A stretch of 64,000 bases of DNA from an uncultured Hormoscilla sp. (lineage in GTDB: Bacteria > Cyanobacteriota > Cyanobacteriia > Cyanobacteriales > Desertifilaceae): contig OZ001293.3 of NCBI GenBank assembly GCA_963921275.4, positions 2,560,001 through 2,624,000 on the forward strand, given 5' to 3'. Position numbers and translations under genes: made by a program. This document shows positions 35,025 through 63,200 of this stretch, piece by piece. The notes under the pieces are model-generated. The model did not search any database and had not been told where the DNA came from. It was given only the letters and a program-made list of their open reading frames with translations. The number at the start of each line of letters is the position of its first letter. Position 1 is the stretch's first letter.

Positions 35025-37240
35025 TTTTGTTAACCTCCTTATTATCAACTCTTGTGGAAGTGAAAAGTTGAGCAATTAAATAAACTGCCATTCCCGCCGC
35101 CATACCGGGAAGCGTTTCGTTAACCCCATCGGACAGCTTCAATTCTATCCAGGTCAAAGCTGTACCGATGCCCACTAGCATCATGGCGATCGCCACGGGC
35201 GCACTTACGTTTTTCTGCCAAACCCGCAGGACCAATAACGGACCCAGACCAGATGCTAGGGCCGACCAGGAGAAAATTACCAACGCAAATATGTTGTCTG
35301 GAGCCAATATGGCGATCGCCACAACCAGTATTGTCACTAACAGAGTCCATAGCTTTGCCAGAGTATAAGAATTGACAGCGGCAGAAAAAATATCTCGACC
35401 CAGGGTAGCAGAACAAGAGAGAATCTGAGAGTCAGCAGTGAAAATGTGCGATGAGTTCTAGCCTAACGTAGTCAAACACGGAACGCTAGCCTAGGAAACT
35501 AGGAACTCTGATATTCATGGGGGTTCAATTCCTCTCCCCCAGGTACGGGGGTGACACCGGTCCTCAGTGCTGCGGAGCAACATCACCGTGGTGCCAAGCG
35601 AGGACTTAAATGTAGGATAGCTGGCAGCCTAAGCCGGTGACGCCGCTAGGAAAGATGGCCAAGGTTAGAGCAAGCGAACCCATGCAAGCCTCGTAAAGCT
35701 AAACCAGCGAAATAAGGCTTTATGCGCTGGCCCAAAAGGGGAAGTAGTTAGTATTGGTTATATTTTCTGGCCAATATCGTATTCAAAGAACTACCGGGGT
35801 ATAGTGGGGACCTAAAGTCATCGTGAAATGGTATCAGGGAACGAAGTAACCCCTCGTGTGCTGTCCATCGGGACAAGTCAGATGTGGAGCGAATGCCACG
35901 GGTGGGAAAGATGGCCCGAGAAGCTAATGCCTGGAGTAATGTCCACGGATAGGGATACGGATACGTATCCGCAGACGCGGGTCGGTGATAGTTGGAAACC
36001 TTCGGTAAAAGTAACCTTAAATACGCAGCGGTACTGAGTCCGGCGCTAGCTGGGCGACAGTTTGGATAAGTCCTCTGGACAAAGGGGTGAAGTAGCAGGA
36101 GGCAAGGGATAACAGGAGCAATCCTCAGTAAACCTACCCGTGACAAGGGCCAACTACCCAGTAGCCGTGTGCGGCTCCAGTCGCATGCACGGTTCCTCAA
36201 GGGAGGGTTGGGGAGCGATTCCCAGCGAGACCCCTAATAGTTCCCGCAAACAGTCCTGCCAACATCACTCCCACCAAGCCAACTGGTAATAATTCTAGTG
36301 CTAAATAGGGCAGGGTCAATTCCGGACCCCCTCCACTCATCAACTCTGGCATCAAGACTCTGCCTGTCAGTCCGATCGTCGTCGCCGTCAAGGAATTAAC
36401 CAGAAAGCAGATGCTTCTCACGTTGTTAGCCAAATCCATGTTATCTTCAGAATCGATCGCCATTGCCCGCACCATAATGTGAGGTTGACCGACTACGCCC
36501 AAACCGCTAACCAACCACCCGATCGCAAAAGGCAATACACCCCAGGCTAGATTTGGTGGATTCAAACTGACCAATGCCGGGTCAATAACGCCAAGTTTTC
36601 GACTCAATTCCATCACGCCACCGCAACTAGCAACCGCCACCACTGACAGCAGCAGTAAGGAACCAACCATCAAGATACCCTGGGCCGCATCGGTCCAGAT
36701 GGAGGCGCGGATACCCCCAGAAAAACAGTAGATGATAACGATGAAGGCTCCCAGTACGATACCAAAATAATAGTTCCAACCAAAGATCGCATTCAGGGCC
36801 TTGCTGCCAGCTACCAGTTGGGCGGCGGCATAAGCACCCAGAAACGCTATAGTAATTATCCCCGAGAGTGCGGCGATCGCCCGACCTGATTTTGCGGCCA
36901 GGAAAGAGGAGAAAGTCTCCGCATCCCTTTGGGCAGATATTTTTCTTAACCGCTTGCCCACCAACCACCAAGAGATATGCTGTCCCACCGTCGCGCTAAC
37001 AATACACCATATAGAAGCCAATACTAGTTTGTAGCTAAAACCGACCACACCTGCAAATAGAAAGCCACTCTGAGTGGTTGCCATCGCCGATAGCCTCGTC
37101 AGCCAGGGATTTACATTTCTGCTAGCTAGCAGGTAATCTGTAGTGGTCTTTTGCTTGCGCAACAGCGCCAATGTTCCCACCAATACAAATAATAGGAGAA
37201 AGGCGACGAAAGTAACCGCAATAGATGTTCTATCGTTCAT
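35014..37240 (-). pseudogene. Na+/proline-type symporter (SSS) interrupted by an antisense group II intron
   Basis: Joining 37240-36239 to 35445-35014 gives a 477-aa frame (...GLFAGT-IFTADSQILS...) paralogous to 45772-47193. Confidence 0.9.
35446..36238 (+). mobile_element. ORF-less group II intron, type B (793 nt)
   Basis: 5' GTGCG; D5 agccgtgtgcggctccagtcgcatgcacggttc; D6 ending gacccctaat; EBS1 ATTTTC (35762-35767) is complementary to the 5' flank GAAAAT. Confidence 0.92.
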
Positions 37241-37346: not shown

Positions 37347-38283
37347 TTACACATTGATAGCCGACTTACTCGATAAAGCAAGATAAGCCCCGAGCAAAAT
37401 TACTACAAAACTCACCAAAGTAGAGCCGCCGATGGTTTCCGAGAAAATTGCCCAAGCTTCCAAGGAGCTAAGGACGGGAACCAGCAGACTGCATAAGGAG
37501 GTTAATCCTGAAGATAATCGCTTGAGGCTATAAGCAAAAAGTCCCAGACCTAGCACTTGGCAGATCAAGGCTAGACCCATTACCGAAACCCACCCACTTA
37601 GGGAATAGGGAAAAAGCATATCTTCGGTGAAGATAACAACGGGTAAAACCAACACCGAAGCGATCGCAGAAACCCAAGTTATAATAATTATATAGTTCTC
37701 TTTAGTTCGCAGTTTTTCTACCAACGTATAAAGCAAAAAACAATGCTGATAGTAATGCTGCTAGATCGCCTGTAATCTTGTCACTGGCGGATTCAAAATC
37801 GTTTACTACTAGGAGACCAGCGCCAGCTATTGCTATAACCATGCCGAGAATAAATCTCTTGTCAAAGCGCCTAACCACCCCCCTAAGATGACGAACGTCA
37901 AATAATGCATGAAGGTAGAGTTGGCAACGCTAGTTTTAATTAGGGACCATGCCCACAGTATGAGAGCTACAGATATAACAATTCCTGCTGCTAGCAATAG
38001 CCCCAGTGGCTCAATGCTGTAGGGCTGCGGTTTGATTGGTTGCTTGTCAAAAAGTCGCCCTCGAACGACCAATACTCCATTCCACAATCCCAAGGTGACA
38101 GTAGCCACCCAAAAGCGATTAAAGATGGTAGCATTGGGAACTAGTTCCCCTTCGCTTAAGCTGATAAAAATGGGGGCGAAAGATATGGCTATTACGCCGA
38201 CCCCTAATGCCGCGATCGCCCACATAGTTTCTGTATCGATTTGCTGTTGCACGTACTAATTTAATTCGTAGGGTTGCGAACAT
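37347..38283 (-). pseudogene. EamA/DMT transporter, frameshifted paralogue of 41556-42506
   Basis: Same protein recognisable in three or more frames. Confidence 0.85.
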
Positions 38284-38370
38284 TGATTATCTCCAGTGAC
38301 TGATACAGATCCCTTGACAATTGCTTTATTATCTTCAGAAGATTTGTCATCTCTGATAAAAATCTGCTTT

Positions 38371-40285
38371 TCACAGATTGGTATACTTAAACTTAGAGCC
38401 ACAAGCTACAGGAATCCGTCTCGCTGCCCCACGCCATAACTCCAATGCCACATCGGACAAATTTTGACCATCCGCCTGGAGCATCCGCGAGATCATGCTA
38501 ATATTGCCAAAAGACCAAAACAAGCCCGCCTCCAGCAGATACGGCTCGTTGGTTTCGGCATGCACTCTGAAGTCATACAGGGAGTAATCGCGACCGCCCA
38601 AAGCTATATGTGCCCGCTTGGCTGCATCAGAGATTTTCTCCCATAAAGAAGGCGTGACATTCCCCGGACAGACGGGTTTCACTGCTGGCTTGTCAGGTTG
38701 TTTCCTGGGCAGTCCGTCCCCTTGCAGGTCATACTTATCACGTACAGTTCTAATGGGATTGTCCTTGGTGACTAAATACTCGATCGTCGGCAGCACCCAT
38801 AACTTCCCCTCACGTTCGACTACCCCCACGCGCAGTTCCCGTCCGGGGATGTAATCTTCTACCAACAAGGTCTCGTCATGTTCAAACCCCACCCGCAATG
38901 CTTCAACTATTTGATCTTCTTCCCAAACCAAAGTCAAGCCCAAAGAATTATCTTCCGAGTTCGGCTTCACCATAAATGGGGGCTGCATGGTCACGGTATC
39001 CCCCTGGCGCACAACTTGGGCCTTGGCCACCGGGACACCAGATGCTGACACGACGCTTCTGGTTTGAGCTTTGTTAGTTGCCAGGGCAGTACAACTAGGT
39101 GGCGACCCCACTACTGGTAGCCCGAGGATGTCCTCGAAGAATCCACGGAAACTAATCATCCCTGGGACACAGAACATATGCGGCACTACTACATCCACCT
39201 CCGGTAGCCCCGCGATCGCCTCTTGGAGGGGCATCTTCTCTGATGGATGGGGTCGAGCCGGGAATCGCTTCCCGACCCTCCCTTGAGGAACCGGACTTGC
39301 GATTTTCACCGCATCCGGCTACTGGGTACTAGGCCCTTTTCATAGGTAGACTTAATAGGAATTACTTCCGTTAGCCCTTGCCGCCTGTCTTTTCTTCCCT
39401 TTCCTGGTTTAGCGAGTGGTTGTTCTGATAACCGTTAGTATCACCATTTTCAAGTCAGTTTTACCAGTTATCCATACCTTATCCTCCACTTGCGTTTCGG
39501 ATTAGTTCCGTGGCTTTTTAGGATTACTCATTCCAGCAGCTTCCTAGTATCACCGACCCACGTCAGCGCTGGCTACCCAGCATCATCTACATTACTGTAG
39601 ATGTTATCCCAGGAATTACCCCGGGCATTCGCTTCTTGGGCCATCCCTCCCCCCGTGGCTTGCGCTTAACATCTAACTTGTCCTGATGGACAGCACACGA
39701 GAGGTTACTTCGTTCCCTAACAACATTTCGCGATACCTTTAGGTCCACACTATACCCCGGGAGCTATTTGAGTACTATATTAGCCAGAGTCTAAAACTAA
39801 TACTAGCTACCATTTCCTTTTTAGGCCAGCGCATATAGCCTTATTTCGCTGGTTCCTTATAACGAGGCTTGCACATGTTTGCCTGCTCTAACCTTGGATA
39901 TCTTTCCTAGCGGCGTCACCGGCTTAGGCTGCCAGTTATCCTACATTTGAGTCCTCGCTTAGCACCACGATGATGTCGCTTCGTAGCACCGAGGACCGGT
40001 GTCACCCCCGTACCTGGGGGGAGGGGAATTTAACCCCCATGCGGTCAGAGTTCCCGGCTAATGAAACCGGGCTAGCGTTCCGTGTTTGACCACGTTAGGC
40101 TAGAACGAATCGCACAGACTGTCTAAGGATGCACCTAGCTGCCAAAGACCATCCGGGTGTACCACGGCGTAGTAGCTACTGACACCAATTGGTTGCACTA
40201 CTTCCCTTGCGTAGATTACCGACAGGTTGTAGTAGAAGTCGGATACGCGAGAACCTGCTAGGTGCAAAACTCGCAAGCAAGGCAT
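38371..40285 (-). CDS. mysD: MysD-type D-Ala-D-Ala-ligase-like ATP-grasp enzyme, copy 1 (exons 40285-40116 and 39244-38371; 347 aa if spliced)
   Basis: MPCLRVLHLAGS..DFYYNLS..YA, PHMFCVPGM, VKP..EDNSLG, YSLYDFRV, LEAGL; MAA cluster context. Confidence 0.85.
39245..40115 (-). mobile_element. ORF-less group II intron, type A copy 1 (871 nt), sense orientation in mysD
   Basis: 5' GTGCGATTCG; D5 agccggatgcggtgaaaatcgcaagtccggttc; D6 gggtcgggaagcgattcccggctcgaccccatcc; no long ORF. Confidence 0.95.
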
Positions 40286-40342
40286 TGTGTCTGATATCAT
40301 CACCAATTTTTCTGTTGTACTTGAGTTTGCTCACATATCATA

Positions 40343-40425
40343 TTAAGGGAAGATGTTTGTTTATCTTTGCTGAAAAGCATTGCCACTCCATCAACAATCA
40401 TATTAGCAGCCATGACAGGAAGCAG
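40343..40425 (-). pseudogene. vestige of the SSS symporter 3' end
   Basis: tttgtttatctttgctgaaaa...tccat.aacaatcata matches ~45783-45830. Confidence 0.65.
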
Positions 40426-40498
40426 AACCCACCTGCGGTGAAACCCTTGCCTGGCAATTATTTTTATCTGTACGCGACCAGAAAAATTTCACGCTACT

Positions 40499-41551
40499 CT
40501 AGGGTACCATACTAAATTCCATTGCCGACAGGTTAGTTTTCGTGTGAACCACCTTTTCTAGCTGAAAACCACTAGCCTTAAACAAATCCTTAAATTCTTG
40601 TTCCGTGCGCCAGTTGCCTCCCGGGTTGGCAACCATCAACTGCACTGCAAAAAGAGCTGGTATTGTCCCATCCGGACATTCTACTGGATCTCCTAAATCT
40701 GGCACTAAGGTTTGTAGAAGTAATATTTTCCCATCTTTGGGGAGAGCTTCTTTACACCGACTCAGAACTTTCAGAGCATTTTCTTTATCCCACAGGGAGA
40801 GGAAATGTTTCATGACGATCGCATCTGCCCCCTTTGGCAATTCACCAAACACATCTCCACCTACTACTTCCAATGCATCACTGGCAATTCCCTGGCTTGA
40901 CAAAAACTCCAGGGCCTTCTCTACCACGTGAGGCAGGTCAAACAATATGCCCTTGATGCCACATTTTTTGATAATCCTGGAGAGCAGTACCCCCAGACCA
41001 CCGCCAACATCCATGACTTTATTAAAGCAGCTAAAATCATATACTTCAAGTAATGAATCTGTCAGTTCTAAAGTAAAAGCCGTCAAAGCCTTATTGAACA
41101 GATCCTTCATCTCGGGGTTATCCTTAGTAAACTGGTAGACCGTCTTACCATTGACCCGTTCAAAAGGCACTTCCCCTGTGTGCAAACAATCTTCCAGTTC
41201 CTGCCATGGCTGCCACATGCTGGGGACAATAAAATGCATGCCAAAATGTCCTAGAGAAGGTCCCTCATCAGTAACCAGCAAAGCCGACATTTCCGTTTGG
41301 CCAAACACCCGTCCTGGTTTTTCCTCAAGCACTCCTAAATGAGCTAGAGCCCTGAGAATAACGTAGATAATTTCTACATTGGTAGCAGTTTTTTCAGCGA
41401 TCTTCTCCACCGGATGCGGTCCCGACTTTAACAGGTTAGGGATTCCCAATCGCGTGAGGATATAAACGCACATGCTCTGCTGGTAAGCGTAGAACATTCG
41501 GTACAGCTTCTTCTTCGACTCCATTGTGGTATCCCCTGATTTATTTTCCAT
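40499..41551 (-). CDS. SAM-dependent methyltransferase (O-/N-methyltransferase type with dimerisation domain)
   Basis: VMDVGGGLG, LFDLPHVV, GGDVF, RTEQEFKDLF. Confidence 0.9.
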   Translation of the reverse strand: MENKSGDTTMESKKKLYRMFYAYQQSMCVYILTRLGIPNLLKSGPHPVEKIAEKTATNVEIIYVILRALAHLGVLEEKPGRVFGQTEMSALLVTDEGPSLGHFGMHFIVPSMWQPWQELEDCLHTGEVPFERVNGKTVYQFTKDNPEMKDLFNKALTAFTLELTDSLLEVYDFSCFNKVMDVGGGLGVLLSRIIKKCGIKGILFDLPHVVEKALEFLSSQGIASDALEVVGGDVFGELPKGADAIVMKHFLSLWDKENALKVLSRCKEALPKDGKILLLQTLVPDLGDPVECPDGTIPALFAVQLMVANPGGNWRTEQEFKDLFKASGFQLEKVVHTKTNLSAMEFSMVP

Positions 41552-41555
41552 ATGC

Positions 41556-42506
41556 TTACACCTTGATAGCAGATTTGCTCGATAAACCCAGATACGCCCC
41601 TAGCAATATTACCACAAAACTGAGTAAGGTAGCCCCCTTGATATTTTCTGAGAAAATTGCCCAAGCTTCCAGAGCGCTGAGGACTGGAACCAGCAGATCG
41701 CATAAGGAGACAAACCCTGAAGATAATTTATTGAGGCAATAGCTGTAAAGTCCCAGACCTATAGTTTGGCAGATTAGGGCTAGACAAATTACCGAAAGCC
41801 ACCCATTAATCGAATAGGGGAAAAGTCTCTCTTCGGTGAGCATAACGATCGGCAACAGTAAGATAGAGGCGATCGCCTCAGCCCAAGTCATAATAATTAT
41901 CGAGGTCAGTTCCCTGCGCAGTTCTTCTACCAGCAGGGTGTATAAGGAAAAAAACAATGCTGATAGTAATGCTGCTAGATCGCCAATAAGTTGGCCATTG
42001 GCCTCTGAGATATCGCTGACTCCCAGGATCCCAGCCCCTGCCATTGCGATCGCCATACCGAGAATAAATCTCTTGTCAAAGCGCCTACCCCAGATCCACC
42101 AGCCCCCGAGGACGACGAATAAAGGCATCAAATAATGCATCAGAGTAGAGTTGGCGACGCTGGTTTTGGTCAGAGACCATGCCCAGAGGATGAGACCAGC
42201 AGATAAAGCAATTCCTACTGCTAGCAATAGCCCTACTATTCTCATGCTGTAGAGCTGTGGTTTTATGGTATGGTTCTGTTCGGGACGTGCAGCCAAGAGG
42301 ATATTCCATAGCCCAAAGGCGACAGTGGCCAACCAGAAGCGATTAAAGATTGTGGCATTGGCACCGAGTTCCCCTTCACCTAAGCGGATAAAAATGGGTA
42401 CAAAAGATATGGCAATCATGCCCCCGACTAATGCGGCGATCGCCCACATAGTTTCTGTGGCTAAAAGCTGTTGCTGTGGTAATTTCAGTCGCAGGCTTGT
42501 GAACAT
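41556..42506 (-). CDS. EamA/DMT family transporter
   Basis: About 10 hydrophobic helices; ISFVPIFIR, SLTKTSVANST, GDLAALLSA. Confidence 0.9.
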   Translation of the reverse strand: MFTSLRLKLPQQQLLATETMWAIAALVGGMIAISFVPIFIRLGEGELGANATIFNRFWLATVAFGLWNILLAARPEQNHTIKPQLYSMRIVGLLLAVGIALSAGLILWAWSLTKTSVANSTLMHYLMPLFVVLGGWWIWGRRFDKRFILGMAIAMAGAGILGVSDISEANGQLIGDLAALLSALFFSLYTLLVEELRRELTSIIIMTWAEAIASILLLPIVMLTEERLFPYSINGWLSVICLALICQTIGLGLYSYCLNKLSSGFVSLCDLLVPVLSALEAWAIFSENIKGATLLSFVVILLGAYLGLSSKSAIKV

Positions 42507-42637
42507 TGATTATCTCCAGTAACTTATACAGAGCTTTTGCCTATTATCTTCTCTGGTGGCAGTAAAAAGTTGGGTAATTAAATCAACTACCATCACCAGC
42601 AGTAACCATCACGATCGCCTGCTTGGATCGATCAAAA

Positions 42638-43774
42638 TTAACTATGGCTGTGGAGCAGCCAGTGTAATCCTAATTGAAAAAGATTGCTGAAGAGCACTAT
42701 CATCAACACGGTATACAGGGAGAATCTATCTTTCCCGATCGGAGAATCCTCTATCCCTGTGGGGGTAGACTGAGGCTGTCTTTGGGTGGAACTGGAGATT
42801 ACGGGTAGATCGGCTTTAGCAATTACGGAGGCTCGCTCCTCTTGCAGGCAGCAGACTTTGGTGGTGGAATAGTGAGACCAGCCCCGTTGCTCGGCTTCTT
42901 CATAGTCTTTGACTGTCAAGCTTAAATGGGGAACCTCGATGTTGCCCTGACTGGCCATAGCCAGAGCCAGCCGCAAATCTTTATGCAGCAATTTGACAGT
43001 AAAGGCAGGGCGTGCAGAGATGTCATCAAAGCGTCGTGAGAACCAATAGTTAGGCAGGCCGTGAATGTCCCCGGCGTTCTGACCAAACGAGCCGAAGTGC
43101 AGGGCATCCCAAATGGTTTGTAGCGGCAGTCCTTGGGCTAAACCCAAGGTAATTCCTTCACTCGCGGCTTGGACTGCGATCGCATTGACAGCATTGTGGA
43201 TGAGTTTGCATCGAGTTCCGCTGCTAATCTCTCCACAGTAGAGAACCCGATCGGCCATCAGTTGGAGGATGGGCTGGACTCGCTCGAAGGTTTCCTTCGA
43301 GCCGCTGGCCAGAACGGCTAAACCCATGCCCTTCTGGCTTTGGGCACCTACAGGGCAATCATTAAAGGGGGCATCTAACATCTCAACCCCTAGTTGATCC
43401 ATGGCTTGATGAAGTCTGAGTATTGTTTCTGGAGAGTTAGTGGTAATGTCTACATAGACACTGCCCGATCGCAATCCTTGAGAGAGGTTCTTTTCGCCAT
43501 CCAGCACGGCTGTTATCACGTCCGCTGGAGTAGGTAGGGCGGTAAAGATTACCTCCGCACAACTCGCAAGTTCGGCACAACTTTGGGTGATGCGGGCACC
43601 TATAGACTGCAACTGGACCATGGAATCTGGATTGATGTCATAGACATAGACCGAGTAGCCAAGGGCTAGAAAATTAGCGGCTTGTCGTCCTCCAATATTA
43701 CCGCAACCGACGATCCCAAGGGTGGGATAATTGAGGGGCGAATCAGTCTCTGAACTGTTGTTGCTTGGTGACAT
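42638..43774 (-). CDS. beta-hydroxyacid dehydrogenase family NAD(P)-dependent oxidoreductase with a C-terminal hydrophobic tail
   Basis: GIVGCGNIG, DITTNSP, LDAP, CKLIHN, HKDLRLA. Confidence 0.88.
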   Translation of the reverse strand: MSPSNNSSETDSPLNYPTLGIVGCGNIGGRQAANFLALGYSVYVYDINPDSMVQLQSIGARITQSCAELASCAEVIFTALPTPADVITAVLDGEKNLSQGLRSGSVYVDITTNSPETILRLHQAMDQLGVEMLDAPFNDCPVGAQSQKGMGLAVLASGSKETFERVQPILQLMADRVLYCGEISSGTRCKLIHNAVNAIAVQAASEGITLGLAQGLPLQTIWDALHFGSFGQNAGDIHGLPNYWFSRRFDDISARPAFTVKLLHKDLRLALAMASQGNIEVPHLSLTVKDYEEAEQRGWSHYSTTKVCCLQEERASVIAKADLPVISSSTQRQPQSTPTGIEDSPIGKDRFSLYTVLMIVLFSNLFQLGLHWLLHSHS

Positions 43775-43790
43775 ATTGAGAACTTATCAT

Positions 43791-45720
43791 TTACGTTTTC
43801 TCTGCTTTCGCAGCGTACTTAAACTTGGCACCACAAGCTACACGAGTACGCCGAAGAGCCGCCGCACTCCACAACTCCCATGCCAGATCGGACAAACTTT
43901 GGCCATCCGCCTGCAGCATCCGCGAGATCATGCCAATTTTGCTGAAAGATCCATACAAACTCGCCTCCAGCATATAGGGCTCATCTGTCTCGGCATGCAC
44001 TCGGAAGTCATACAGGGAGCATTCGCGACAGCCCAAAGCTATATGTGCCCGCTTCACTGCATCAGAGATTTTCTCCCATAAAGAAGGCGTGACCTTAGCC
44101 GGACACACTGGCTTCACTGCTGGCTTGTCAGGTTGTTTCCTCGGCAGTCCGTCCCCTTGCAGGTCATACTTATCACGTAAAGTTCTAATGGGATTGTCGG
44201 AGGTGACTAAATACTCGATCGCTGGCAGCACCCATAACTTCCCCTCACGCTCGACTACTGCCACCCGCAGTTCCCGTCCGGGGATGTAATCTTCTACCAA
44301 CAAGGTTTCGTCATGTTCAAACCCCACCCGCAATGCTTCAACTATTTGATCTTCTTCCCAAACCAAAGTCAAGCCCAAAGAATTATCTTCCGAGTTCGGC
44401 TTAACTATAAATGGGGGCTGCATGGTCACGCTATCCCCTCGGCGCACAACTTGGGCCTTGGCGATCGGGACACCATAGGCTGATACTACGCTTCTGGTTT
44501 GAGCTTTGTTAGTTGCTAGGGCCGTACAACTAGGTGGCGACCCCACTACCGGTAGCCCGAGGATGTCCTCGAAGAGCCCACGGAAACTGGTCATCCCTGG
44601 GACACAGAACATATGCGGCACTACTACATCCACCTCCGGTAGCCCCGCGATCGCCTCTTGGAGGGGCATCTTCTCTGATGGATGGGGTCGAGCCGGGAAT
44701 CGCTTCCCGACCCTCCCTTGAGGAACCGGACTTGCGATTTTCACCGCATCCGGCTACTGGGTACTAGGCCCTTTTCATAGGTAGACTTAATAGGAATTAC
44801 TTCCGTTAGCCCTTGCCGCCTGTCTTTTCTTCCCTTTCCTGGTTTAGCGAGTGGTTGTTCTGATAACCGTTAGTATCACCATTTTCAAGTCAGTTTTACC
44901 AGTTATCCATACCTTATCCTCCACTTGCGTTTCGGATTAGTTCCGTGGCTTTTTAGGATTACTCATTCCAGCAGCTTCCTAGTATCACCGACCCACGTCA
45001 GCGCTGGCTACCCAGCATCATCTACATTACTGTAGATGTTATCCCAGGAATTACCCCGGGCATTCGCTTCTTGGGCCATCCCTCCCCCCGTGGCTTGCGC
45101 TTAACATCTAACTTGTCCTGATGGACAGCACACGAGAGGTTACTTCGTTCCCTAACAACATTTCGCGATACCTTTAGGTCCACACTATACCCCGGGAGCT
45201 ATTTGAGTACTATATTAGCCAGAGTCTAAAACTAATACTAGCTACCATTTCCTTTTTAGGCCAGCGCATATAGCCTTATTTCGCTGGTTCCTTATAACGA
45301 GGCTTGCACATGTTTGCCTGCTCTAACCTTGGATATCTTTCCTAGCGGCGTCACCGGCTTAGGCTGCCAGTTATCCTACATTTGAGTCCTCGCTTAGCAC
45401 CACGATGATGTCGCTTCGTAGCACCGAGGACCGGTGTCACCCCCGTACCTGGGGGGAGGGGAATTTAACCCCCATGCGGTCAGAGTTCCCGGCTAATGAA
45501 ACCGGGCTAGCGTTCCGTGTTTGACCACGTTAGGCTAGAACGAATCGCACAGACTATCTAAGGATGTGCCTAGCTGCCAAAGGCCATCGGGGTGTACCAC
45601 GGCGTAGTAGCTACTGACACCAACTGGTTGCACTACTTCCCTTGCGTAGATTACCGACAGGTTGTAGTAGAAGTCGGATACGCGAGAACCTGCTAGGTGC
45701 AAAACTCGCAAGCAAGGCAT
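43791..45720 (-). CDS. mysD: MysD-type ATP-grasp ligase, copy 2 (exons 45720-45551 and 44679-43791; 352 aa if spliced)
   Basis: Close paralogue of copy 1, with the intron at the same position. Confidence 0.85.
44680..45550 (-). mobile_element. ORF-less group II intron, type A copy 2 (871 nt), sense orientation in mysD
   Basis: Sequence appears identical to 39245-40115. Confidence 0.95.
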
Positions 45721-45771
45721 TGTTTCTGATATCATCCCCAATCTACTGTTGTACTTAATTTTTCTCAAATG

Positions 45772-47193
45772 TTAGGAATATTTTTGTTTATCTTTGCTGA
45801 AAAACTGAGCAATTCCATAAACAATCATACCTGTAGTCATTCCCGGAAGCACTTCGTACAGTATACCAGACAAGTTTAGTCCTAATTTCCATGTCAAAGC
45901 TGCCCCTATGCCCGCCACCATCATGGCGATCACCACTGGTGCCGTTACAGGTTTTTGCCAAACCCGGACTAGCAATAGCGGACCGAGACCAGAAGCTAGG
46001 GCTGACCAAGCAAAAATTACCAATGCGAATACATTATCATCTCCTGCCAACGCCATACTCAAAATTATCATTGTTACCGTCAGGGTTCCCAGTTTTGCCC
46101 ACTTGTAAGACTGGGCAATTTGAGGAAACAAATCCTGGGTTAGAGCTGCCGAACTTGACAGGATCTGAGAGTCAGCCGTAGATATCGTCGCAGCAAACAG
46201 TCCCGCTAGCATCAATCCTACCAAGATCGCTGGCAACAATTCTAGGGATAAATAGGGCAGTGCTAACTCCGGATCCCCATTAGACATTAATTCTGGTAGC
46301 ATCACTCTCGCTGTTAGTCCTACACCTATTGCACAAAAAGATGCCATCAGACCGCAGATTATTTTGATGTTGCGAGCTTTAGCTATACTATCGGCAGAGT
46401 CGATCGCCATACCTCGCACCAGGATATGAGGTTGACCTACCACCCCAAACCCTGCTGCTATCCAACCGATGAAAAAAGGCAACAGTCCTAACTGAAGGTT
46501 TTGCGGACTTAAGGAAACCAGTGCCGGGTCTATCTCGCCCAGTTTTCTCCATATTTGGACTACGCCACCGCTGCCAGCAACTGCAACTACCAGCAGCAGC
46601 AGCAAGGAACCGATCATCACCACTGATTGCGCTGCATCCGTCCAGATGGAGGCGCGGATACCTCCAGAAAAACAATAGATGACCACAATGACCGCCCCTA
46701 CTATTATACCCAAGTTGTAGTTCCACCCGAACACCGCATTTAGTGCCTTGCTACCTGCCACCAGTTGTGCTGCCGCATAGGTTCCCATCAAGGTAATAAT
46801 AATTAAAGCTGAGACCTTTGTAATCGGGCGAAACCCCTTTGTTTCTTGACCGAGTAAGGATGAGACTGTCTCGGAAGCAGTTAACTCCGATATTTGCCTT
46901 AACCGTTTGAAAACCAACCACCAAGCAATATAATCTCCTATAGCCCAGCCGATTGTCAACCATAGGGCCGAAATTCCTGCCTGGTAAGCGAAGCCTACCT
47001 CCCCGATAAACAAAAAGCCGCTTTGACCTGATGCCTGAGCCGATAGGGCCGTCAGCCAGGGATTGACATTTCTGCTAGCCAGCAGGTAATCACTCGTCGT
47101 ATTTTGCTTGCGGGTCGCAGAATATATTCCTACCATAGTAAATAATAGCAGAAAGGCGATGAATGTCACTGCGATCCCAAATTTATTATCCAT
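45772..47193 (-). CDS. Na+/proline-type symporter (SSS/PutP-like)
   Basis: DYLLASR, SGGIRASIWTD, GQPHILVR, AATISTADSQIL. Confidence 0.92.
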   Translation of the reverse strand: MDNKFGIAVTFIAFLLLFTMVGIYSATRKQNTTSDYLLASRNVNPWLTALSAQASGQSGFLFIGEVGFAYQAGISALWLTIGWAIGDYIAWWLVFKRLRQISELTASETVSSLLGQETKGFRPITKVSALIIITLMGTYAAAQLVAGSKALNAVFGWNYNLGIIVGAVIVVIYCFSGGIRASIWTDAAQSVVMIGSLLLLLVVAVAGSGGVVQIWRKLGEIDPALVSLSPQNLQLGLLPFFIGWIAAGFGVVGQPHILVRGMAIDSADSIAKARNIKIICGLMASFCAIGVGLTARVMLPELMSNGDPELALPYLSLELLPAILVGLMLAGLFAATISTADSQILSSSAALTQDLFPQIAQSYKWAKLGTLTVTMIILSMALAGDDNVFALVIFAWSALASGLGPLLLVRVWQKPVTAPVVIAMMVAGIGAALTWKLGLNLSGILYEVLPGMTTGMIVYGIAQFFSKDKQKYS

Positions 47194-47279
47194 TGTCAGT
47201 TTGTAGGGTGGGCATTGCCCACCAAGTTAGATGGCACTGACTTAAGGTTGGTGGGCGGTGCCCACCAACCTTCTGCGCC

Positions 47280-48493
47280 CTAGTCTCCGCCCAATTCTAC
47301 TAGCTTACCTATATTAAAATCAATCTTCACCCAACCTTTCAATTTTCTCATATTATTCAGCAGGAGTAATGGTATTTGCCAGTGGTGGACCATCAAAAAC
47401 GGCAAGGGGTCATTCACCTGGAAGATCCCATCCGTTCCCTTGATTATCTTATTAAACCACCCCTTGAGTTGCCCCCAAGATCTAATTCCCGTCAGTCGCC
47501 AGAGTTCGTGATATGTCCAATAGGTAGGTTTACTCTCAGGAAGTGGCTCAATGGGCGGTTTCCGATCGTCCTTGCTATCCTGAATATATGCATCCGCGAC
47601 CCCAGGATGATTGTAAAACATGGTGATTGCCGTGTGGGTGCGCGGGTTACATTCTACTGGATAAACTTTCCCATCTTTCGTCTGAATAACATCTAAAGAA
47701 ATTTGTCCTGTCAGGTTTAATGCCTTGACAAACTGCTGCACCCATTGGAAAATATCCTGGTTATCCACTTGCTCGTAATTTACCTGAAAGGGAGAAGACC
47801 GCGAACAGCATGCAGTCTGACGATCCCCTTCCTGACCGTACTGTGGGTACAATATTCTTGTCCGCGAATAAATTCCTGCATGATCCAAGGTTGGGACTCG
47901 CTGATGGGCAATCCCTTGACAAAACTTGCCATTTCCTCTAGGCTACTCATGGGCAGTTTCGTCAGATCCAAGCGGTAAACTGAGTTATAGGCGATACTCT
48001 TAATAATGTACTGACTGCCATCGGCGGTAAAGTCAAAGTTCAGCACTTGTTCGGGGTCTGTAATCAAAAATGCTTTTGGCGCAGTTAAACCAAACTCCCT
48101 CGCCTTTTGACAAAATGTAAACTTGTTATCTAACATCTCGGTAATCTCAGCATCAAAGGTTAACGCCTCGCAGTGAGGTGATAACAATGATTTCGCGATC
48201 GAGTCGTAGTAACTGGCAACGGGACTGGATACGGGAATAAAGACATCAATCTTTTCCTGCTTGACAATATCCAATAATCCCTGACAATAGCTGTTCGGGT
48301 CAATTTCGGGTGCTGGCACGGTGAAAAATCCCTTGACCGCCCGAGAAAAGCGATGTCCTGATAACCAGTATTTATGAGTTTCTACCAGAAACACTGTATG
48401 TCCGGCTGCGTGAAAGCAACGGGCCAGTTGCAGCGCTTTTGTCATCTTACCACCCGTAATCAAGATATTTTTGGGATTTGCCGCAACCACCTT
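47280..48493 (-). pseudogene. mysC: MysC ATP-grasp (mycosporine-glycine synthase), lacking its N-terminus and frameshifted near 47810
   Basis: ILITGGKMTKALQLAR, ETHKYWLSGHRFS, ECNPRTH, IDFNIGKLVELGGD. Confidence 0.92.
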
Positions 48494-49113
48494 TTTCTTA
48501 TCGGCATCGATAAACACCAAGTCAAAGGACTCCGAAGCATTTGCCAATTGGCGCAGGGTCTCTAAAGCCGGTGCTACCTTGACAGTAATTTTACTTCCGT
48601 GGGGGGACTCTTGGAAACAGTTTTGGCAAAGTTAGCCACATATTCATCCACCTCACAGGCAACCAGGAGTCCATCTTCTGGCAGGGCCTCTGCCATGGCC
48701 AGGGCCGAATATCCGGTGAACATGCCGATTTCCAAGATCCGTTTTGCCCCCGTCATGTGGACAAACATCTTCAGAGTTTGTCCCTCGACATGTCCCGAAA
48801 GCATCTCCTGTTCTAACTGTCGCACTAGCTCCCCATCTGAGAACCTTTTGCTCCAATCTTCTGAGGCCGTTTTGAGTGCCAATGCTGTCAAGGCGGGGGA
48901 CTCGGCAGTACTGCACTTATTCAGATAAGGTTCTATTCCTGCTGCCAGATCGTAGGCTTTTTGAACAGCAGCGGCCAGTTCTGCTGGCACCTTGGCGTCA
49001 GAGAGCATCTGCACTGCGCTGGCCAGATCTTCTACCAAGATACCCAAGGGGGTGACAGGTCTGGCTGTCTTTTCTTTCACAACCGTCGCGATCGTCATGC
49101 ACTCTTCTCCCAA
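48494..49113 (-). pseudogene. mysB: MysB O-methyltransferase, frameshifted near 48620 and C-terminally deleted
   Basis: TARPVTPLGIL, LEQEMLSGHVEGQTLKM, LEIGMFTGYSAL, FDLVFIDADK. Confidence 0.92.
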
Positions 49114-49732
49114 ATTTGTTCAAAAATAGACATAAATCCTGAAATATTGAAACTACCTCTAGCTCTGACAGTCTTGACTCTCACGCTTCTTAACCCTGTT
49201 TAGAGCGGTTGGAACTCGTCTGCCCACCGGTTATAGATGACGATCGCCGGATAGAAACGGAACACGGAAGCTTTTCCCTTCTATAATTATTTCCTGGGAG
49301 TGTGGTCAAAAGTAGTTGGTTTAGTATATAATGGATATTTTCAGCGTCCAGTTGTCAAGAGGTTCTCATTAATGATATTTATTAATATTATTAAATTATT
49401 CCCAGTTATCCCTAGGCAAGATCAGTAAAAATACTCAGAAAAATATCTGGACATGGTCCCCAGGGATGTGATAGGGTTTGGCTGTTAAGCAATTGTCTAA
49501 TACCATTTTGTTAAACATCTGATAGACTTGACCGTAGCATAGATTAGAGACGGGAGCCTCCGAATAGCGCAGCGTGTTCCCAGGTTCTACCTGGGAACGA
49601 GAGAGTAGGGGTTTCTTCTCTATCAATTGTTTATGAAATTGGTATAACGTTTTTCATAGCTCTGGCGCGAGCGCGTTTTCAAGCGTGACAGCAGATTGTG
49701 ACTGAAATCTAAAGAGGAAATTTTCCGATCCG

Positions 49733-50731: not shown

Positions 50732-50863
50732 GACGGGCGTCTCCTCTGTCCATCCCTAGGACGGGCGTCCCGCCTGTCCGGATGTGGTCAGTGGTCAGTG
50801 GCCAATGCAAGAATTTTGAATTGTTTAATAGGTGTTGTGTCAATTAGCGAGGAGGTTACTCAT

Positions 50864-51742: not shown

Positions 51743-51859
51743 CTTCATTCGCTACCATTGAATACTGTAGGTTGGGTAGAGGGCCAGCGAAACCCAACAG
51801 GGCTTGCTGGTGTTGGGTTTCATGCCCAAACCCAACCTACAACTTAGCGATCGGTCTTT

Positions 51860-53224
51860 TTATTCCAGACCCAGATCGCTGAGGTACATTTCCACTCCTG
51901 CCCCACCATCGGGGAAGTTAGCACATAATGCCTTATGTTCGGATATAGCAGCTTCGAGCAATTCCTGCGGCACTTCTCGGGCATAGTCGCAGTTGCCAAT
52001 GCCGCCCCGAGGTAGGGGTGCCCACAGTCCGCCATCTCCCCGTTTGCGATTCATATTCTTCTGTCCGGAAATCATTAAATCAATGTCTTCCAGGATCGGA
52101 TGATAGACTGCCAAATCGAGGGTGCGAATCAGGGCAATGATCCGATCGCGTTCCGCAGCGGAGATCCAACCCATCATCGTGGCCAAAGTTGCCCCGAAGG
52201 CCATGCCGATGCTCACCGCGTGACCGTGCATCAGCCTCGCCGCGGGTTCATAACGGGGACTCCAAGTGTGACCGTAGGCGTGAGGCCGATCCTGATAGGT
52301 CTCGAACATGTTCGTCCCTTCGTGCTTCATATAGGAGAACAGTTCCCGGTAGATCACCTCATCGGCGATTTCCCCTAACTCTTCGTCTTCTTCAGTGGTA
52401 GCAAAGTGGGTTTCGATCAAGCGCTGACCGTATTTCTCCAGCAACTCAAAGAGAACTTTGTCATCTGTCACCGCCATCTTGATAATTTCGGCCATGCCAT
52501 TGCGGACGTGACCGGTGGGGAGGGTGCGGAATACACTCCGATCGACCAGAGTTAGCACCGGGGGATGATAAGCACCGATGCTGTTCTTGAATTGCTTGCC
52601 GTTGGTACAGGTGCGCGGTGACGGACCTGCATCAATCGCCGCGATCACCGTTGTCGGCACCATCACATAAGGAGTGCGGCGATGCTGTAAAGAACAGGCT
52701 AACCCCGCCACATCGGTGAGGACGCCACCGCCGATCACCAGCACTGGTTCGTTGCGAGACACGTCACAACCATCCTTGCCCAGGAATCCCAAAATACGGT
52801 GGACTGTTTCCGGAGTTTTGTCCGCTTCCCAGGCCCGGATCACCTGCATTTCCAGAGTAATTTCGTTGGTGTCAAAATAGCGACGCACCGACTCTCCGTA
52901 CAGCTCGTTCACGGTTTCGTCGATGACGGCAACACAGCGACCCCGACTATTATAGATTTCCGCCAGGGTGGGGTTTGACGGGTCAAATACCCCATCGACC
53001 AGCTTCACCTTGGCCGTCAGACTGTAGGTTGCAGAGACCTCGAACGATCGACCGTCCTTTCCTGGGAAGATCTGCCCTGAGCCAGTGTACCACTCTGAGG
53101 TACGATATATAGGGTCATGCTTTACCCCAATGTCCTTGTTTTCTGAGCGCTCGAACTGCTCTCTCAACTCTTCCTTGATCTTCTCTGTCAGTTCTGTTTG
53201 AGCGATTGCAGTTTGTAGACTCAT
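51860..53224 (-). CDS. mysA: sedoheptulose-7-phosphate cyclase (DDGS/MysA-like, divergent)
   Basis: IGGGVLTDVAG, RNGMAEIIK, AYGHTWSP, HGHAVSIGM; upstream of mysB/C. Confidence 0.88.
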   Translation of the reverse strand: MSLQTAIAQTELTEKIKEELREQFERSENKDIGVKHDPIYRTSEWYTGSGQIFPGKDGRSFEVSATYSLTAKVKLVDGVFDPSNPTLAEIYNSRGRCVAVIDETVNELYGESVRRYFDTNEITLEMQVIRAWEADKTPETVHRILGFLGKDGCDVSRNEPVLVIGGGVLTDVAGLACSLQHRRTPYVMVPTTVIAAIDAGPSPRTCTNGKQFKNSIGAYHPPVLTLVDRSVFRTLPTGHVRNGMAEIIKMAVTDDKVLFELLEKYGQRLIETHFATTEEDEELGEIADEVIYRELFSYMKHEGTNMFETYQDRPHAYGHTWSPRYEPAARLMHGHAVSIGMAFGATLATMMGWISAAERDRIIALIRTLDLAVYHPILEDIDLMISGQKNMNRKRGDGGLWAPLPRGGIGNCDYAREVPQELLEAAISEHKALCANFPDGGAGVEMYLSDLGLE

Positions 53225-53903: not shown

Positions 53904-54774
53904 GTGCGATTCGTTCTAGCCTAACGTGGTCAAACACGGAACTCTAGCCCGGTTTCATTAGCCGGGAACTCTGACCGCATGGGGGTTAAATTCCCCTCCC
54001 CCCAGGTACGGGGGTGACACCGGTCCTCGGTGCTACGAAGCGACATCATCGTGGTGCTAAGCGAGGACTCAAATGTAGGATAACTGGCAGCCTAAGCCGG
54101 TGACGCCGCTAGGAAAGATATCCAAGGTTAGAGCAGGCAAACATGTGCAAGCCTCGTTATAAGGAACCAGCGAAATAAGGCTATATGCGCTGGCCTAAAA
54201 AGGAAATGGTAGCTAGTATTAGTTTTAGACTCTGGCTAATATAGTACTCAAATAGCTCCCGGGGTATAGTGTGGACCTAAAGGTATCGCGAAATGTTGTT
54301 AGGGAACGAAGTAACCTCTCGTGTGCTGTCCATCAGGACAAGTTAGATGTTAAGCGCAAGCCACGGGGGGAGGGATGGCCCAAGAAGCGAATGCCCGGGG
54401 TAATTCCTGGGATAACATCTACAGTAATGTAGATGATGCTGGGTAGCCAGCGCTGACGTGGGTCGGTGATACTAGGAAGCTGCTGGAATGAGTAATCCTA
54501 AAAAGCCACGGAACTAATCCGAAACGCAAGTGGAGGATAAGGTATGGATAACTGGTAAAACTGACTTGAAAATGGTGATACTAACGGTTATCAGAACAAC
54601 CACTCGCTAAACCAGGAAAGGGAAGAAAAGACAGGCGGCAAGGGCTAACGGAAGTAATTCCTATTAAGTCTACCTATGAAAAGGGCCTAGTACCCAGTAG
54701 CCGGATGCGGTGAAAATCGCAAGTCCGGTTCCTCAAGGGAGGGTCGGGAAGCGATTCCCGGCTCGACCCCATCC
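53904..54774 (+). mobile_element. ORF-less group II intron, type A copy 3 (871 nt), intergenic
   Basis: Same sequence as the other copies (one substitution seen near 53943); EBS2 ATAAGG at 54175-54180, EBS1 AGACTC at 54227-54232. Confidence 0.95.
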
Positions 54775-60275: not shown

Positions 60276-63200
60276 CTACACGAAGACGAAATTATCTGCT
60301 GTGAGAGCCGTAGCAGTGGATGGGGTCGAGCCGGGAATCGCTTCCCGACCCTCCCTTGAGGAACCGGACTTGCGATTTTCACCGCATCCGGCTACTGGGT
60401 ACTAGGCCCTTTTCATAGGTAGACTTAATAGGAATTACTTCCGTTAGCCCTTGCCGCCTGTCTTTTCTTCCCTTTCCTGGTTTAGCGAGTGGTTGTTCTG
60501 ATAACCGTTAGTATCACCATTTTCAAGTCAGTTTTACCAGTTATCCATACCTTATCCTCCACTTGCGTTTCGGATTAGTTCCGTGGCTTTTTAGGATTAC
60601 TCATTCCAGCAGCTTCCTAGTATCACCGACCCACGTCAGCGCTGGCTACCCAGCATCATCTACATTACTGTAGATGTTATCCCAGGAATTACCCCGGGCA
60701 TTCGCTTCTTGGGCCATCCCTCCCCCCGTGGCTTGCGCTTAACATCTAACTTGTCCTGATGGACAGCACACGAGAGGTTACTTCGTTCCCTAACAACATT
60801 TCGCGATACCTTTAGGTCCACACTATACCCCGGGAGCTATTTGAGTACTATATTAGCCAGAGTCTAAAACTAATACTAGCTACCATTTCCTTTTTAGGCC
60901 AGCGCATATAGCCTTATTTCGCTGGTTCCTTATAACGAGGCTTGCACATGTTTGCCTGCTCTAACCTTGGATATCTTTCCTAGCGGCGTCACCGGCTTAG
61001 GCTGCCAGTTATCCTACATTTGAGTCCTCGCTTAGCACCACGATGATGTCGCTTCGTAGCACCGAGGACCGGTGTCACCCCCGTACCTGGGGGGAGGGGA
61101 ATTTAACCCCCATGCGGTCAGAGTTCCCGGCTAATGAAACCGGGCTAGCGTTCCGTGTTTGACCACGTTAGGCTAGAACGAATCGCACAACCCCAATAAG
61201 GGTTAGAGAGTCATCATCATCGAAAGTGATGACTGTATTAGATCCATTTTGGGTAGTTGCCCCTAAAACCGCTGTTAAATCAGGGAATCAAAAAGCGCTA
61301 ACGTCAATAGCATCCTCAGAGATGTCGAAGTCGGTAATAGCATCCGCACTACCACTATCGGTAGCGACGAAAGTATCTGCTGCTGCTCCCAGACTCACCG
61401 TAACGGCTGTACCGGAGTTTTGGGTGAAACTGTCACTCCCACCTCCAAGTAAAACATCACCGTTGAGAGTACCATTATTGACAACATTGATGCTACCAAG
61501 AGAGCCACTAGCATGAATAGCAGCGTTCCCGTTACCACCTGTAATAGTACCCCCAGCTTCGTTGGTGATGGTGCCGTTAAACGCTACACCTGCCTGAATG
61601 AGGATACCAGCACTTTCCTCAGAAGCAATGGTACCGGAGTTAGTGATGGAACCTGTTACCGTAGCTCCTGCTGTACCGCTGAAGAAGCGAATCCCAGCGG
61701 GAACATTATCAGCACCCCGCCCTCGAATTGAACCCTGGTTTGAGATGACAATATTCTCAGAAGTTGCATCCTCATCAACTTCGCCAATTTCAGCTGAGAT
61801 CCCGCTACCGGAATTCCCGGCTCCTGCATCGATAGTACCACTACTATTGATAGTAATGCCATCTGCTGTGCCATCTAAGTAAATAGTACCATTGCGCTGA
61901 TCTCCTGTTTTCAGAATCTGCCCGGTGTTAATTAGGGTGACGCCATTACCGTCCAAGTTCACTGCACGACTGTCGGAGGATATGGTTCCTGCATTTAATA
62001 TGGTCAAATCATGGTCAGCATTACCAATATAAAGACTATTATTTGGTCCTTCAATCTCACCACTGTTGGTGATCGTGCCATCGAAAGCCACTCCATCTTC
62101 TACCAAAATCCCGCCCACAGTGCCAGTTTCTGCTTCGGTTGAGATGATATTGAAGTTGGTAATATAAGCTGTTACAGTGGCTTCTCCTTCAGCAGCAGTC
62201 AAACCGCTGAAGAAGCGGATCCCAGCGGGAACATTATCAGCACCCCGCCCTCGAATTGAACCCCGGTTTGAGATGACAATATTCTCAGAAGTTGCATCCT
62301 CATCAACTTCGCCAATTTCAGCTGAGATCCCGCTACCGGAATTCCCTGCTCCTGCATCGATGGTACCACTACTATTGATAGTAATGCCATCTGCTGTGCC
62401 ATCTAGGTAAATATTACCATTGCGCTGATCCCCCGTTCCCAGAATCTGCCCACTGTTATTCAGGGTGACATTATCCCCGTCCAAGTTGACTGCACGACTG
62501 TCGGAGGATATGGTTCCTGCATTTAATATGGTCAAATCATGGTCAGCATTAACAATATAAAGACCATTATTTGGTCCTTCAATCTCGCCACCATATCTGT
62601 TAGCGATCGTGCCATCGAAAGCCACTCCATCTTCTACCAAAATCCTGCCCACAGTGCCAGTTTCTGCTTCGGTTGAGATGATATTGAAGTTGGTAATATA
62701 AGCTGTTACAGTGGCTTCTCCTTCAGCAGCAGTCAAACCGCTGAAGAAGCGGATCCCAGCGGGAACATTATCAGCACCCCGCCCTCGAATTGAACCCCGG
62801 TTTGAGATGACAATATTCTCAGAAGTTGCATCCTCATCAACTTCGCCAATTTCAGCTGAGATCCCGCTACCGGAATTCCCTGCTCCTGCATCGATGGTAC
62901 CACTACTATTGATAGTAATGCCATCTGCTGTGCCATCTAGGTAAATAGTACCATTGCGCTGATCTCCTGTTCCCAGAATCTGCCCACTGTTATTCAGGGT
63001 GACATTATCCCCGTCCAAGTTGACTGCACGGCTATCTGAAGATATCTCCCCTGAATTTTTAATCCTGAGATTGTGGCGAGCATTACCAACGTAAATACCA
63101 TTGATATCTCCTTCAATCTCACCCCACAAACGGTTGTTGATAATACCATTGAAAGCGACCCCATCTTGAACCACAATTGCACCGCCAGCGTCTATCTCAG

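Follow-up and report, generated by a model that had tools for sequence, protein, structure and literature searches.

Identical ORF-less group II introns split both mysD paralogues in a Hormoscilla genome that carries 139 copies of the element

Introduction

Group II introns that carry no open reading frame (ORF) have been described in the cyanobacterium Thermosynechococcus elongatus, where, according to the cited part of that study, they are spliced and mobilised by the intron-encoded proteins (IEPs) of other introns, and where the identity of inner introns lying in diverged outer ones is interpreted as a sign of recent, independent insertion (PMC2882425). For Trichodesmium, the cited part of another study describes group II introns and twintrons within host genes (PMC4649490), and a 2022 survey gives, in the portion used here, 101 as the largest group II intron count for a prokaryote (PMC8919778). 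In this work, we analysed a 64,000-nt stretch of DNA from an uncultured Hormoscilla sp. (NCBI GenBank assembly GCA_963921275.4, contig OZ001293.3, positions 2,560,001 to 2,624,000 of the forward strand; hereafter the window), in which both paralogues of mysD are split by an identical ORF-less group II intron of 871 nt. The insertions are likely the outcome of a genome-wide selfish burst of this intron, which would have hit each mysD gene independently by retrohoming after the two had diverged, and not a device of the pathway to which mysD belongs. MysD is a D-Ala-D-Ala-ligase-like enzyme of mycosporine-like amino acid (MAA) synthesis, and adds an amino acid to mycosporine-glycine.

Results

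Both mysD genes are split at the same codon

The window corresponds to C1:2560001-2624000 of the source genome (G000, 7.03 Mb), and was compared with four genomes of the same genus (G001-G004). Its two mysD genes are clustered with mysA-, mysB- and mysC-like genes, and the cluster is collinear with the intact cluster of G003. The parts of the two split genes, with their intron-binding sites (IBS) and exon-binding sites (EBS), are as follows.

40116..40285, minus strand: mysD1 exon 1, 170 nt, bounded by the ATG and the 5' splice site; in alignment, this ATG coincides with the start codons of the G001 and G004 homologues
40125-40130 (IBS2, ATCCTT) and 40116-40121 (IBS1, CAGTCT), minus strand: binding sites within the last 15 nt of mysD1 exon 1
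39245..40115, minus strand: mysD1 intron, ORF-less group II, 871 nt, from the match to RF00029 and the alignment of genomic copies
39890-39895 (EBS2, AAGGTT), 39787-39792 (EBS1, AGACTC) and 39247-39323 (domains V/VI), minus strand: parts of the mysD1 intron
38371..39244, minus strand: mysD1 exon 2, 874 nt including the stop codon, with a D-Ala-D-Ala-ligase-like ATP-grasp domain (Pfam PF07478, E 1.4e-20)
45551..45720, minus strand: mysD2 exon 1, 170 nt, with IBS2 ATCCTT and IBS1 TAGTCT
44680..45550, minus strand: mysD2 intron, group II, 871 nt, the same as the mysD1 copy at every position
43791..44679, minus strand: mysD2 exon 2, 889 nt including the stop codon (PF07478, E 2.8e-21)

Splicing in silico gave 1044 nt for mysD1 and 1059 nt for mysD2, with open frames of 347 and 352 aa that agree with uninterrupted homologues at both the protein and the DNA level. 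The exons join in codon phase 2 (CT/A, the slash marking the junction), reading ...GAC AGT CT/A TCA GAG AAG... and yielding the peptide ...SLDSL/SEKM.... The sequence AGTCT/ATC is found at this position in the uninterrupted G004 and G003 genes, and SL(D/E)(S/N)LSEK spans it in all four alignable uninterrupted same-genus homologues (L002, L003, L005 and L008). An initial annotation, made from the window sequence, had placed the same sense-strand intron at the same codon of both genes, after a 170-nt exon 1 in phase 2 and with joined frames of these lengths, and our analysis confirmed this anatomy. The ORF list of the window contains the truncated ORFs with intron-derived N-termini that the annotation had also predicted (38371..39309, 312 aa; 43791..44744, 317 aa), along with short exon-1 ORFs that stop four codons inside the intron. 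The mysD products match PF07478 and score far below the NCBIfam cut-off for Ddl (92 versus 243 bits); NCBIfam holds no MysD model, and a sequence search of the PDB found no solved MysD structure.

Between the two introns, all 871 positions agree. Exon 1, by comparison, differs between the paralogues at 6 of 170 nt, and exon 2 has 75 mismatches and a single gap in 864 aligned nt; the exons as a whole differ by about 8%, with dS of 0.22 and dN/dS of 0.26. About 75 differences would be expected in an intron that had travelled with the exons and diverged like exon 2; none is seen. The pairing of identical introns with diverged exons, which the initial annotation had pointed out, thus holds, and equal divergence of the two was not observed.

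The insert is a group II intron of 871 nt

The insert in both mysD genes is a group II intron. It begins with GTGCG (at 40115 and 45550), in accordance with the group II GUGYG rule, and ends with ...CCCCATCC; the GTGCG end is present in all 139 genomic copies, which align from position 1. The minus strand has matches to Rfam model RF00029 (group II domains V/VI) at 39247-39323 and 44682-44758, over the full model (1-77) and with 44.4 bits against a gathering score of 40. The domain V fold contains the AGC triad, a 2-nt bulge and a GAAA loop, and the stem of domain VI that comes next has an unpaired GA (-40.3 kcal/mol, z -4.48). For domains I-IV, model RF01999 (D1-D4-2) gave 22 bits against a gathering score of 36.

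Following the Rfam consensus, the intron would end in ...CCCCAT after 869 nt and the exons would be out of frame; this alternative was rejected on three grounds. In 138 of the 139 genomic copies, CC follows the 869-nt unit and the flanks vary beyond it, which makes the mobile unit 871 nt; tandem copies join as ...CATCC/GTGCG, which fits this length; and sister intron families of G000 likewise have a 4-nt tail after CCCC (GACT, GACC or TAAT). The intron and the mobile unit are thus both 871 nt, ending in ...CATCC.

The single wholly internal ORF of at least 50 aa on the intron strand is 53 aa long, so the intron encodes no protein, and its splicing would be self-catalysed or helped in trans. 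This agrees with the initial annotation, which had proposed maturase-free or trans-assisted splicing.

Copies of the intron follow one target rule across the genome

A BLAST search of the whole genome found 139 full-length copies of the intron with 98.6-100% identity. All align over at least 869 of 871 nt, and 61 show no difference across the 869-nt query. Together, the 139 copies are spread over 121 distinct insertion sites, whose logo shows AACCTT at -15 to -10, GAGTCT at -6 to -1 and A at +1 (in 87 of the 121), giving the consensus AACCTT-N3-GAGTCT/A. Information is nil beyond -15 or +1, and the base-pairing motif spans 12-13 nt. Its two blocks are the exact complements of EBS2 (AAGGTT, intron positions 221-226) and EBS1 (AGACTC, 324-329). 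The mysD targets, ATCCTT-AGA-CAGTCT/A in mysD1 and ATCCTT-AGA-TAGTCT/A in mysD2, pair at 5/6 and 5/6 positions, and score 12.2 and 10.4 bits with a matrix trained without them, for an occupied-site median of 11.5. The mysD sites are ordinary targets of the intron.

Two further copies lie in the window.

53904..54774, plus strand: third copy of the 871-nt intron, at a site that ORFs of at most 38 aa span
60318..61188, minus strand: fourth copy of the 871-nt intron

Elsewhere in G000, the intron forms head-to-tail arrays of three copies (C1:5447656-5450268) or two copies (C1:824934-826675 and C1:1325884-1327625). Self-twintrons also occur, with five or six copies inserted at position 768 of another copy. 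Tandem and self-nested copies, together with the target rule, are the signature of retrohoming by reverse splicing. The intron itself contains a homing site for its own sequence, TTCCTATTAAGTCT/A.

The 139 copies are part of a larger population. A domain V/VI profile built from G000 (nhmmer) gave 440-457 hits, 411-429 of them near full length, corresponding to about 430 modules; at least 349 BLAST hits to the intron span domains V-VI, and its BLAST hits total 300.5 kb. An Rfam screen of G000 started from 867 first-look candidates; 150 of them were scored, and almost every one of these passed. The module count is about four times the 101 stated in the consulted portion of the 2022 survey (PMC8919778).

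A 753-nt contig from a run on another organism contains 686 nt of the intron with zero differences, flanked by a different target site, and the intron family thus exists outside the source assembly.

The insertions postdate the divergence of the paralogues

G003 contig C268 is collinear with the window over 40504-44682 (96.4% nt identity) and 45551-48498 (95.2%), and these blocks adjoin at the mysD2 insertion site, where the intron is absent; this is the closest orthologous locus. At the protein level, mysD2 is 94.6% identical to its G003 orthologue and 89.0% identical to mysD1. The G002 relative of mysD1 (90.4% nt identity over 1060 nt) is contiguous and without an intron, and the mysD genes of G001 and G004 are uninterrupted. 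Since mysD2 is closer to the G003 gene than to mysD1 and the G003 site is empty, the paralogues split before G000 and G003 did, and the intron entered later. These comparisons support insertion after the duplication, which fits best of the orders considered.

The opposite order, in which the intron was present in mysD before the duplication, was then homogenised by concerted evolution and was precisely lost in relatives, appears extremely improbable. The 139 near-identical copies could have served as conversion donors, but the intron is missing from the mysD orthologue or nearest gene in each of the four same-genus genomes, and would thus have had to be lost precisely several times. Close copies were also not found elsewhere: in a search of 31 genomes including G000, with 16 candidates scored per genome, the top matches outside G000 were 91-92% identical in G004 and about 82% or less in other genomes, and none of the matches scored in the 30 other genomes reached 97%.

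A second mysD-like sequence in G003 (L028, contig C520, 1586 nt) is a fragment that ends about 38 nt into exon 2, and the break adjoins an apparent group II intron 5' end (GTGCGAC...) on the opposite strand. From this arrangement, a second mysD copy in this relative may have been hit by an intron too, in antisense.

Host genes and the state of the mys cluster do not support a control point

After removal of the intron in silico, ORFs of at least 150 aa spanning the insertion site were counted. By this measure, 35-36 in-ORF copies are in sense and 41 in antisense (29 distinct antisense sites). With counts this similar, orientation looks unselected, and the sense orientation of the mysD copies cannot be taken as a sign of selection. 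Copies in antisense simply disrupt their genes. Among the sense hosts examined (20 of 36), all of them accessory, Pfam profiles run across the junction for DUF3352 (4-188 and 189-489) and PhyH (1-137 and 140-211), and other sense hosts encode a dihaem cytochrome c, a mechanosensitive channel, response regulators, pentapeptide-repeat proteins, defence genes and the reverse transcriptase (RT) of another intron. The copies in defence-type genes (L033, L039, L043 and L048) lie in genes for a pPIWI_RE island protein, an Eco57I-like methylase and two GmrSD-like nucleases.

Next to mysD, the genes mysB and mysC are both damaged.

47283..49104, minus strand: mysB and mysC remnants, from alignment with the intact G001 and G004 genes

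Each carries a 1-nt deletion (mysB near 48621, mysC near 47811), and a 414-nt deletion at about 48499 has removed the 3' end of mysB together with the spacer and the 5' end of mysC, fusing the two genes. Both genes are intact in all four same-genus genomes. A tblastn search of G000 found no second mysC and, elsewhere in the genome, only a 38%-identical methyltransferase. With mysB and mysC already disrupted, MysD is probably without a substrate, and we infer that the mys pathway has been lost in G000.

These data bear on the possibility that the introns were co-opted, such that regulated splicing gates MysD production and hence sunscreen output. The sense orientation of both copies, the exact restoration of the frame and the requirement for a trans-supplied factor would suit such a role, and the dN/dS between the paralogues implies past purifying selection on both. 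Against it stand the disruption of mysB and mysC with no second copy, the presence of the same intron at 119 other distinct sites with about half of the in-ORF copies in antisense, insertions too recent for any intron divergence, and orthologues that, judging from their uninterrupted genes, would work without the intron. Co-option is therefore very unlikely, and the initial annotation's proposal of a control point in a sunscreen pathway is not supported for an intron with 139 copies at 121 sites, near-equal orientation in ORFs and broken mysB and mysC genes beside it.

Candidate helper proteins and the evidence on splicing

The maturase domain GIIM (PF08388) has 75 matches in G000, 22 of them in open frames of at least 550 aa. 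All three long GIIM ORFs scanned contain RVT_N, RVT_1, GIIM and HNH domains. A PDB search with one G000 IEP gave as best match the maturase/RT chain 6me0_C (1.4e-113); we take 6ME0 to be the T. elongatus group II intron particle. Since the mobile unit of a group II intron is the excised RNA, the established mechanism implies that the 871-nt unit has been excised in vivo from at least some copies.

No mysD exon-exon joint was found among the DNA contigs over the locus, which drop rare variants. A 198-nt contig considered as a bridge extends only 25 nt into the intron, under the 31-nt bridging rule, and was not counted.

Two homing events compared with homing and recombination

Two homing events into the mysD paralogues, with a short exchange initiated in the identical introns perhaps occurring afterwards, constitute the reading that we regard as probable, and it is favoured over one homing event with subsequent recombination. 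In the latter, a single retrohoming into one paralogue would be followed by DNA recombination (gene conversion or break repair) to the other, possibly started by a particle cutting the empty site; the HNH endonuclease domain of the scanned IEPs is in line with such a start. The sequences on either side of the introns bear on both readings. Upstream of the intron, the paralogues differ at 6, 17, 18, 33, 39 and 74 nt from the insertion point (6 of 74), and the difference at 6 nt argues against a simple two-sided conversion tract; for recombination to have carried the intron, the tract could reach no further than 5 nt beyond the insertion on this side. The genome-wide set of 61 identical copies also makes conversion unneeded to explain the identity of the mysD introns.

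Several observations nevertheless weigh against independent homing or against the wider account of which it is part. Directly 3' of the intron, exon 2 shows no difference between the paralogues over 89 nt, followed by 7 differences in 81 nt, and a stretch of this kind, in view of the 6 of 74 directly 5', would fit a recombination tract that includes the intron. Among genomic sites that score like the mysD sites, only 6-10% are occupied, and independent hits on two paralogous sites are thus not the expected outcome; some repeated targets are occupied at 20-30%. The ORF-containing parent intron was not found, the nearest 5' parts being at most 79.8% identical, and the helper protein was not pinpointed among the IEPs. 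The sole RNA run found, a coral metatranscriptome, gave no match on window positions 38300-42600, a result that is neutral on splicing. Among 20 of the 36 sense sites (39 exon pieces), no essential gene split in sense orientation was found; the hosts are accessory genes or repeat proteins, and do not compel the conclusion that splicing works in vivo. As for the decay of the cluster, errors in the assembly could account for the two 1-nt deletions in mysB and mysC, one of which adjoins an AAAA run. The 414-nt deletion is unlikely to be such an error, and is the sole robust lesion of the two genes, as read from the assembly.

The 89-nt stretch also diverges little among other lineages (from 2 of 53 to 4 of 89 positions), which makes its identity here weak evidence for conversion. 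Taken with the tract boundary required upstream, one homing followed by recombination is an unlikely source of the second copy, and two homing events are preferred. The initial annotation had offered independent homing or gene conversion after duplication as origins. The empty G003 and G002 sites favour insertion after duplication, and the difference 6 nt upstream speaks against simple two-sided conversion, leaving a one-sided conversion of 89 nt as a possible addition.

Compared with mysD2, the G003 mysD gene (L004/L031, contig C268) shows a strong mosaic signal in this region. Over coding positions 171-340 it differs from mysD2 at 24 of 170 positions, compared with 16 of 885 elsewhere, and the divergent tract begins within about 10 nt of the empty homing site. 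The mosaic signal between mysD2 and G003 arises mainly because G003 is an outlier to every other sequence there. Given where it begins, the tract may be a footprint of past intron-linked recombination.

Flanks of the mys region

Beyond the mysB and mysC remnants, the cluster continues with a mysA-like gene.

51860..53224, minus strand: mysA-like gene of the dehydroquinate-synthase family, open frame of 454 aa (Pfam PF01761 and PF24621)

Between mysB and mysA, a DUF6492 gene and an FkbM-type methyltransferase gene lie at 49105-51800 on the plus strand. The corresponding gap between mys genes in G003 is about 180 nt, and the segment 49105-51800 would therefore be an insertion or rearrangement.

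On the other side, at 35446-36234 (plus strand), 36197-37240 (minus strand) and 37347-38252 (minus strand), a truncated sodium:solute symporter paralogue has at its end, in antisense, a diverged relative of the intron (about 84% identity, 5' part), and a neighbouring EamA paralogue is broken into several ORFs. To judge by these remains, the mysD1 flank looks decayed. The mys region as a whole is bracketed by two 886-nt DDE-transposase elements (33269-34154 and 54997-55882, plus strand) that are 99.5% identical and in direct orientation; the ORF of this element has 39 matches in G000.

Discussion

The proposed route to the split mysD genes is one of reverse splicing. The excised intron RNA would form a particle with the reverse transcriptase/maturase of another intron, and the particle would reverse-splice the RNA into DNA that pairs with the EBS2 and EBS1 loops, followed by DNA copying. 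Both mysD paralogues would have retained a good target, ATCCTT-AGA-YAGTCT/A, 170 nt into the gene, each being hit after their divergence. Hits of this kind on the same kept target would leave identical introns at the same codon between diverged exons. With the introns in sense orientation and a mobile unit of exactly 871 nt, splicing would restore both MysD frames precisely, and would rely on a maturase supplied in trans.

A wider and more tentative proposal is that a shared trans-acting splicing apparatus keeps dozens of split genes working, including both mysD genes and at least 34 other sense ORFs, with a few 'driver' maturases serving some 430 mostly ORF-less introns. We consider this possible but doubtful at present. 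The Trichodesmium study reportedly contains splicing evidence for host-gene introns. If such an apparatus operates in G000, the strain would be a living model of intron proliferation with common splicing machinery. Likewise, a mysD recombination tract starting exactly at the homing site would, if real, point to intron-linked exchange between paralogues.

The significance of these findings lies mainly in mobile-element biology, with 139 copies and about 430 modules in 7.03 Mb, many of them in genes and in both orientations. The genome offers a natural system for bacterial tolerance of intron spread, and for the question of whether trans-acting maturases keep split genes functional. For the sunscreen pathway the insertions have little significance, being recent, not specific to mysD and located in a cluster that is already broken. 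For annotation, automated gene calling would yield two shortened mysD genes whose N-termini are false, and artefacts of this kind are expected at dozens of other G000 loci.

A literature search by title or abstract start found no paper tying group II introns to mysD or mycosporines, and no paper on this genome was found. New here are the genome and the host gene, mysD; the T. elongatus type of ORF-less intron proliferation is known. As with the known MysD enzyme, the proteins are Ddl-like ATP-grasp proteins whose genes lie beside mysA, mysB and mysC. They differ in being encoded by two paralogues, both split by an intron and with broken mysB and mysC neighbours, and are known here from their genes. 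Trichodesmium, as described in the cited part of its study, is like the G000 strain a filamentous marine cyanobacterium with many group II introns, including introns within introns (PMC4649490).

The closest parallel is TeI3 of T. elongatus, for which the cited part of the report describes small ORF-less introns of one ancestor in a cyanobacterium, site choice mainly by EBS/IBS pairing and twintrons, all of which have likenesses here (PMC2882425). The reading of identical introns in diverged hosts as recent, independent arrivals is likewise shared. As in a TeI3-type system, the G000 intron contains no IEP, intact IEP genes are present elsewhere in the genome, and the copies are many, near-identical and well pairing. 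Unlike for TeI3 as described there, neither an ORF remnant nor a parent intron was found for the G000 intron (PMC2882425). The 36 sense and 41 antisense copies in G000 ORFs of at least 150 aa are a further point of difference. Mobilisation and splicing by the 'driver' IEPs of other introns, stated for T. elongatus in the same part of that report, are what we propose for G000 from its gene content (PMC2882425). The two genomes differ in scale: 28 introns in all are given for T. elongatus in the cited part (PMC2882425), whereas G000 has 139 copies of this single family and about 430 domain V/VI modules.

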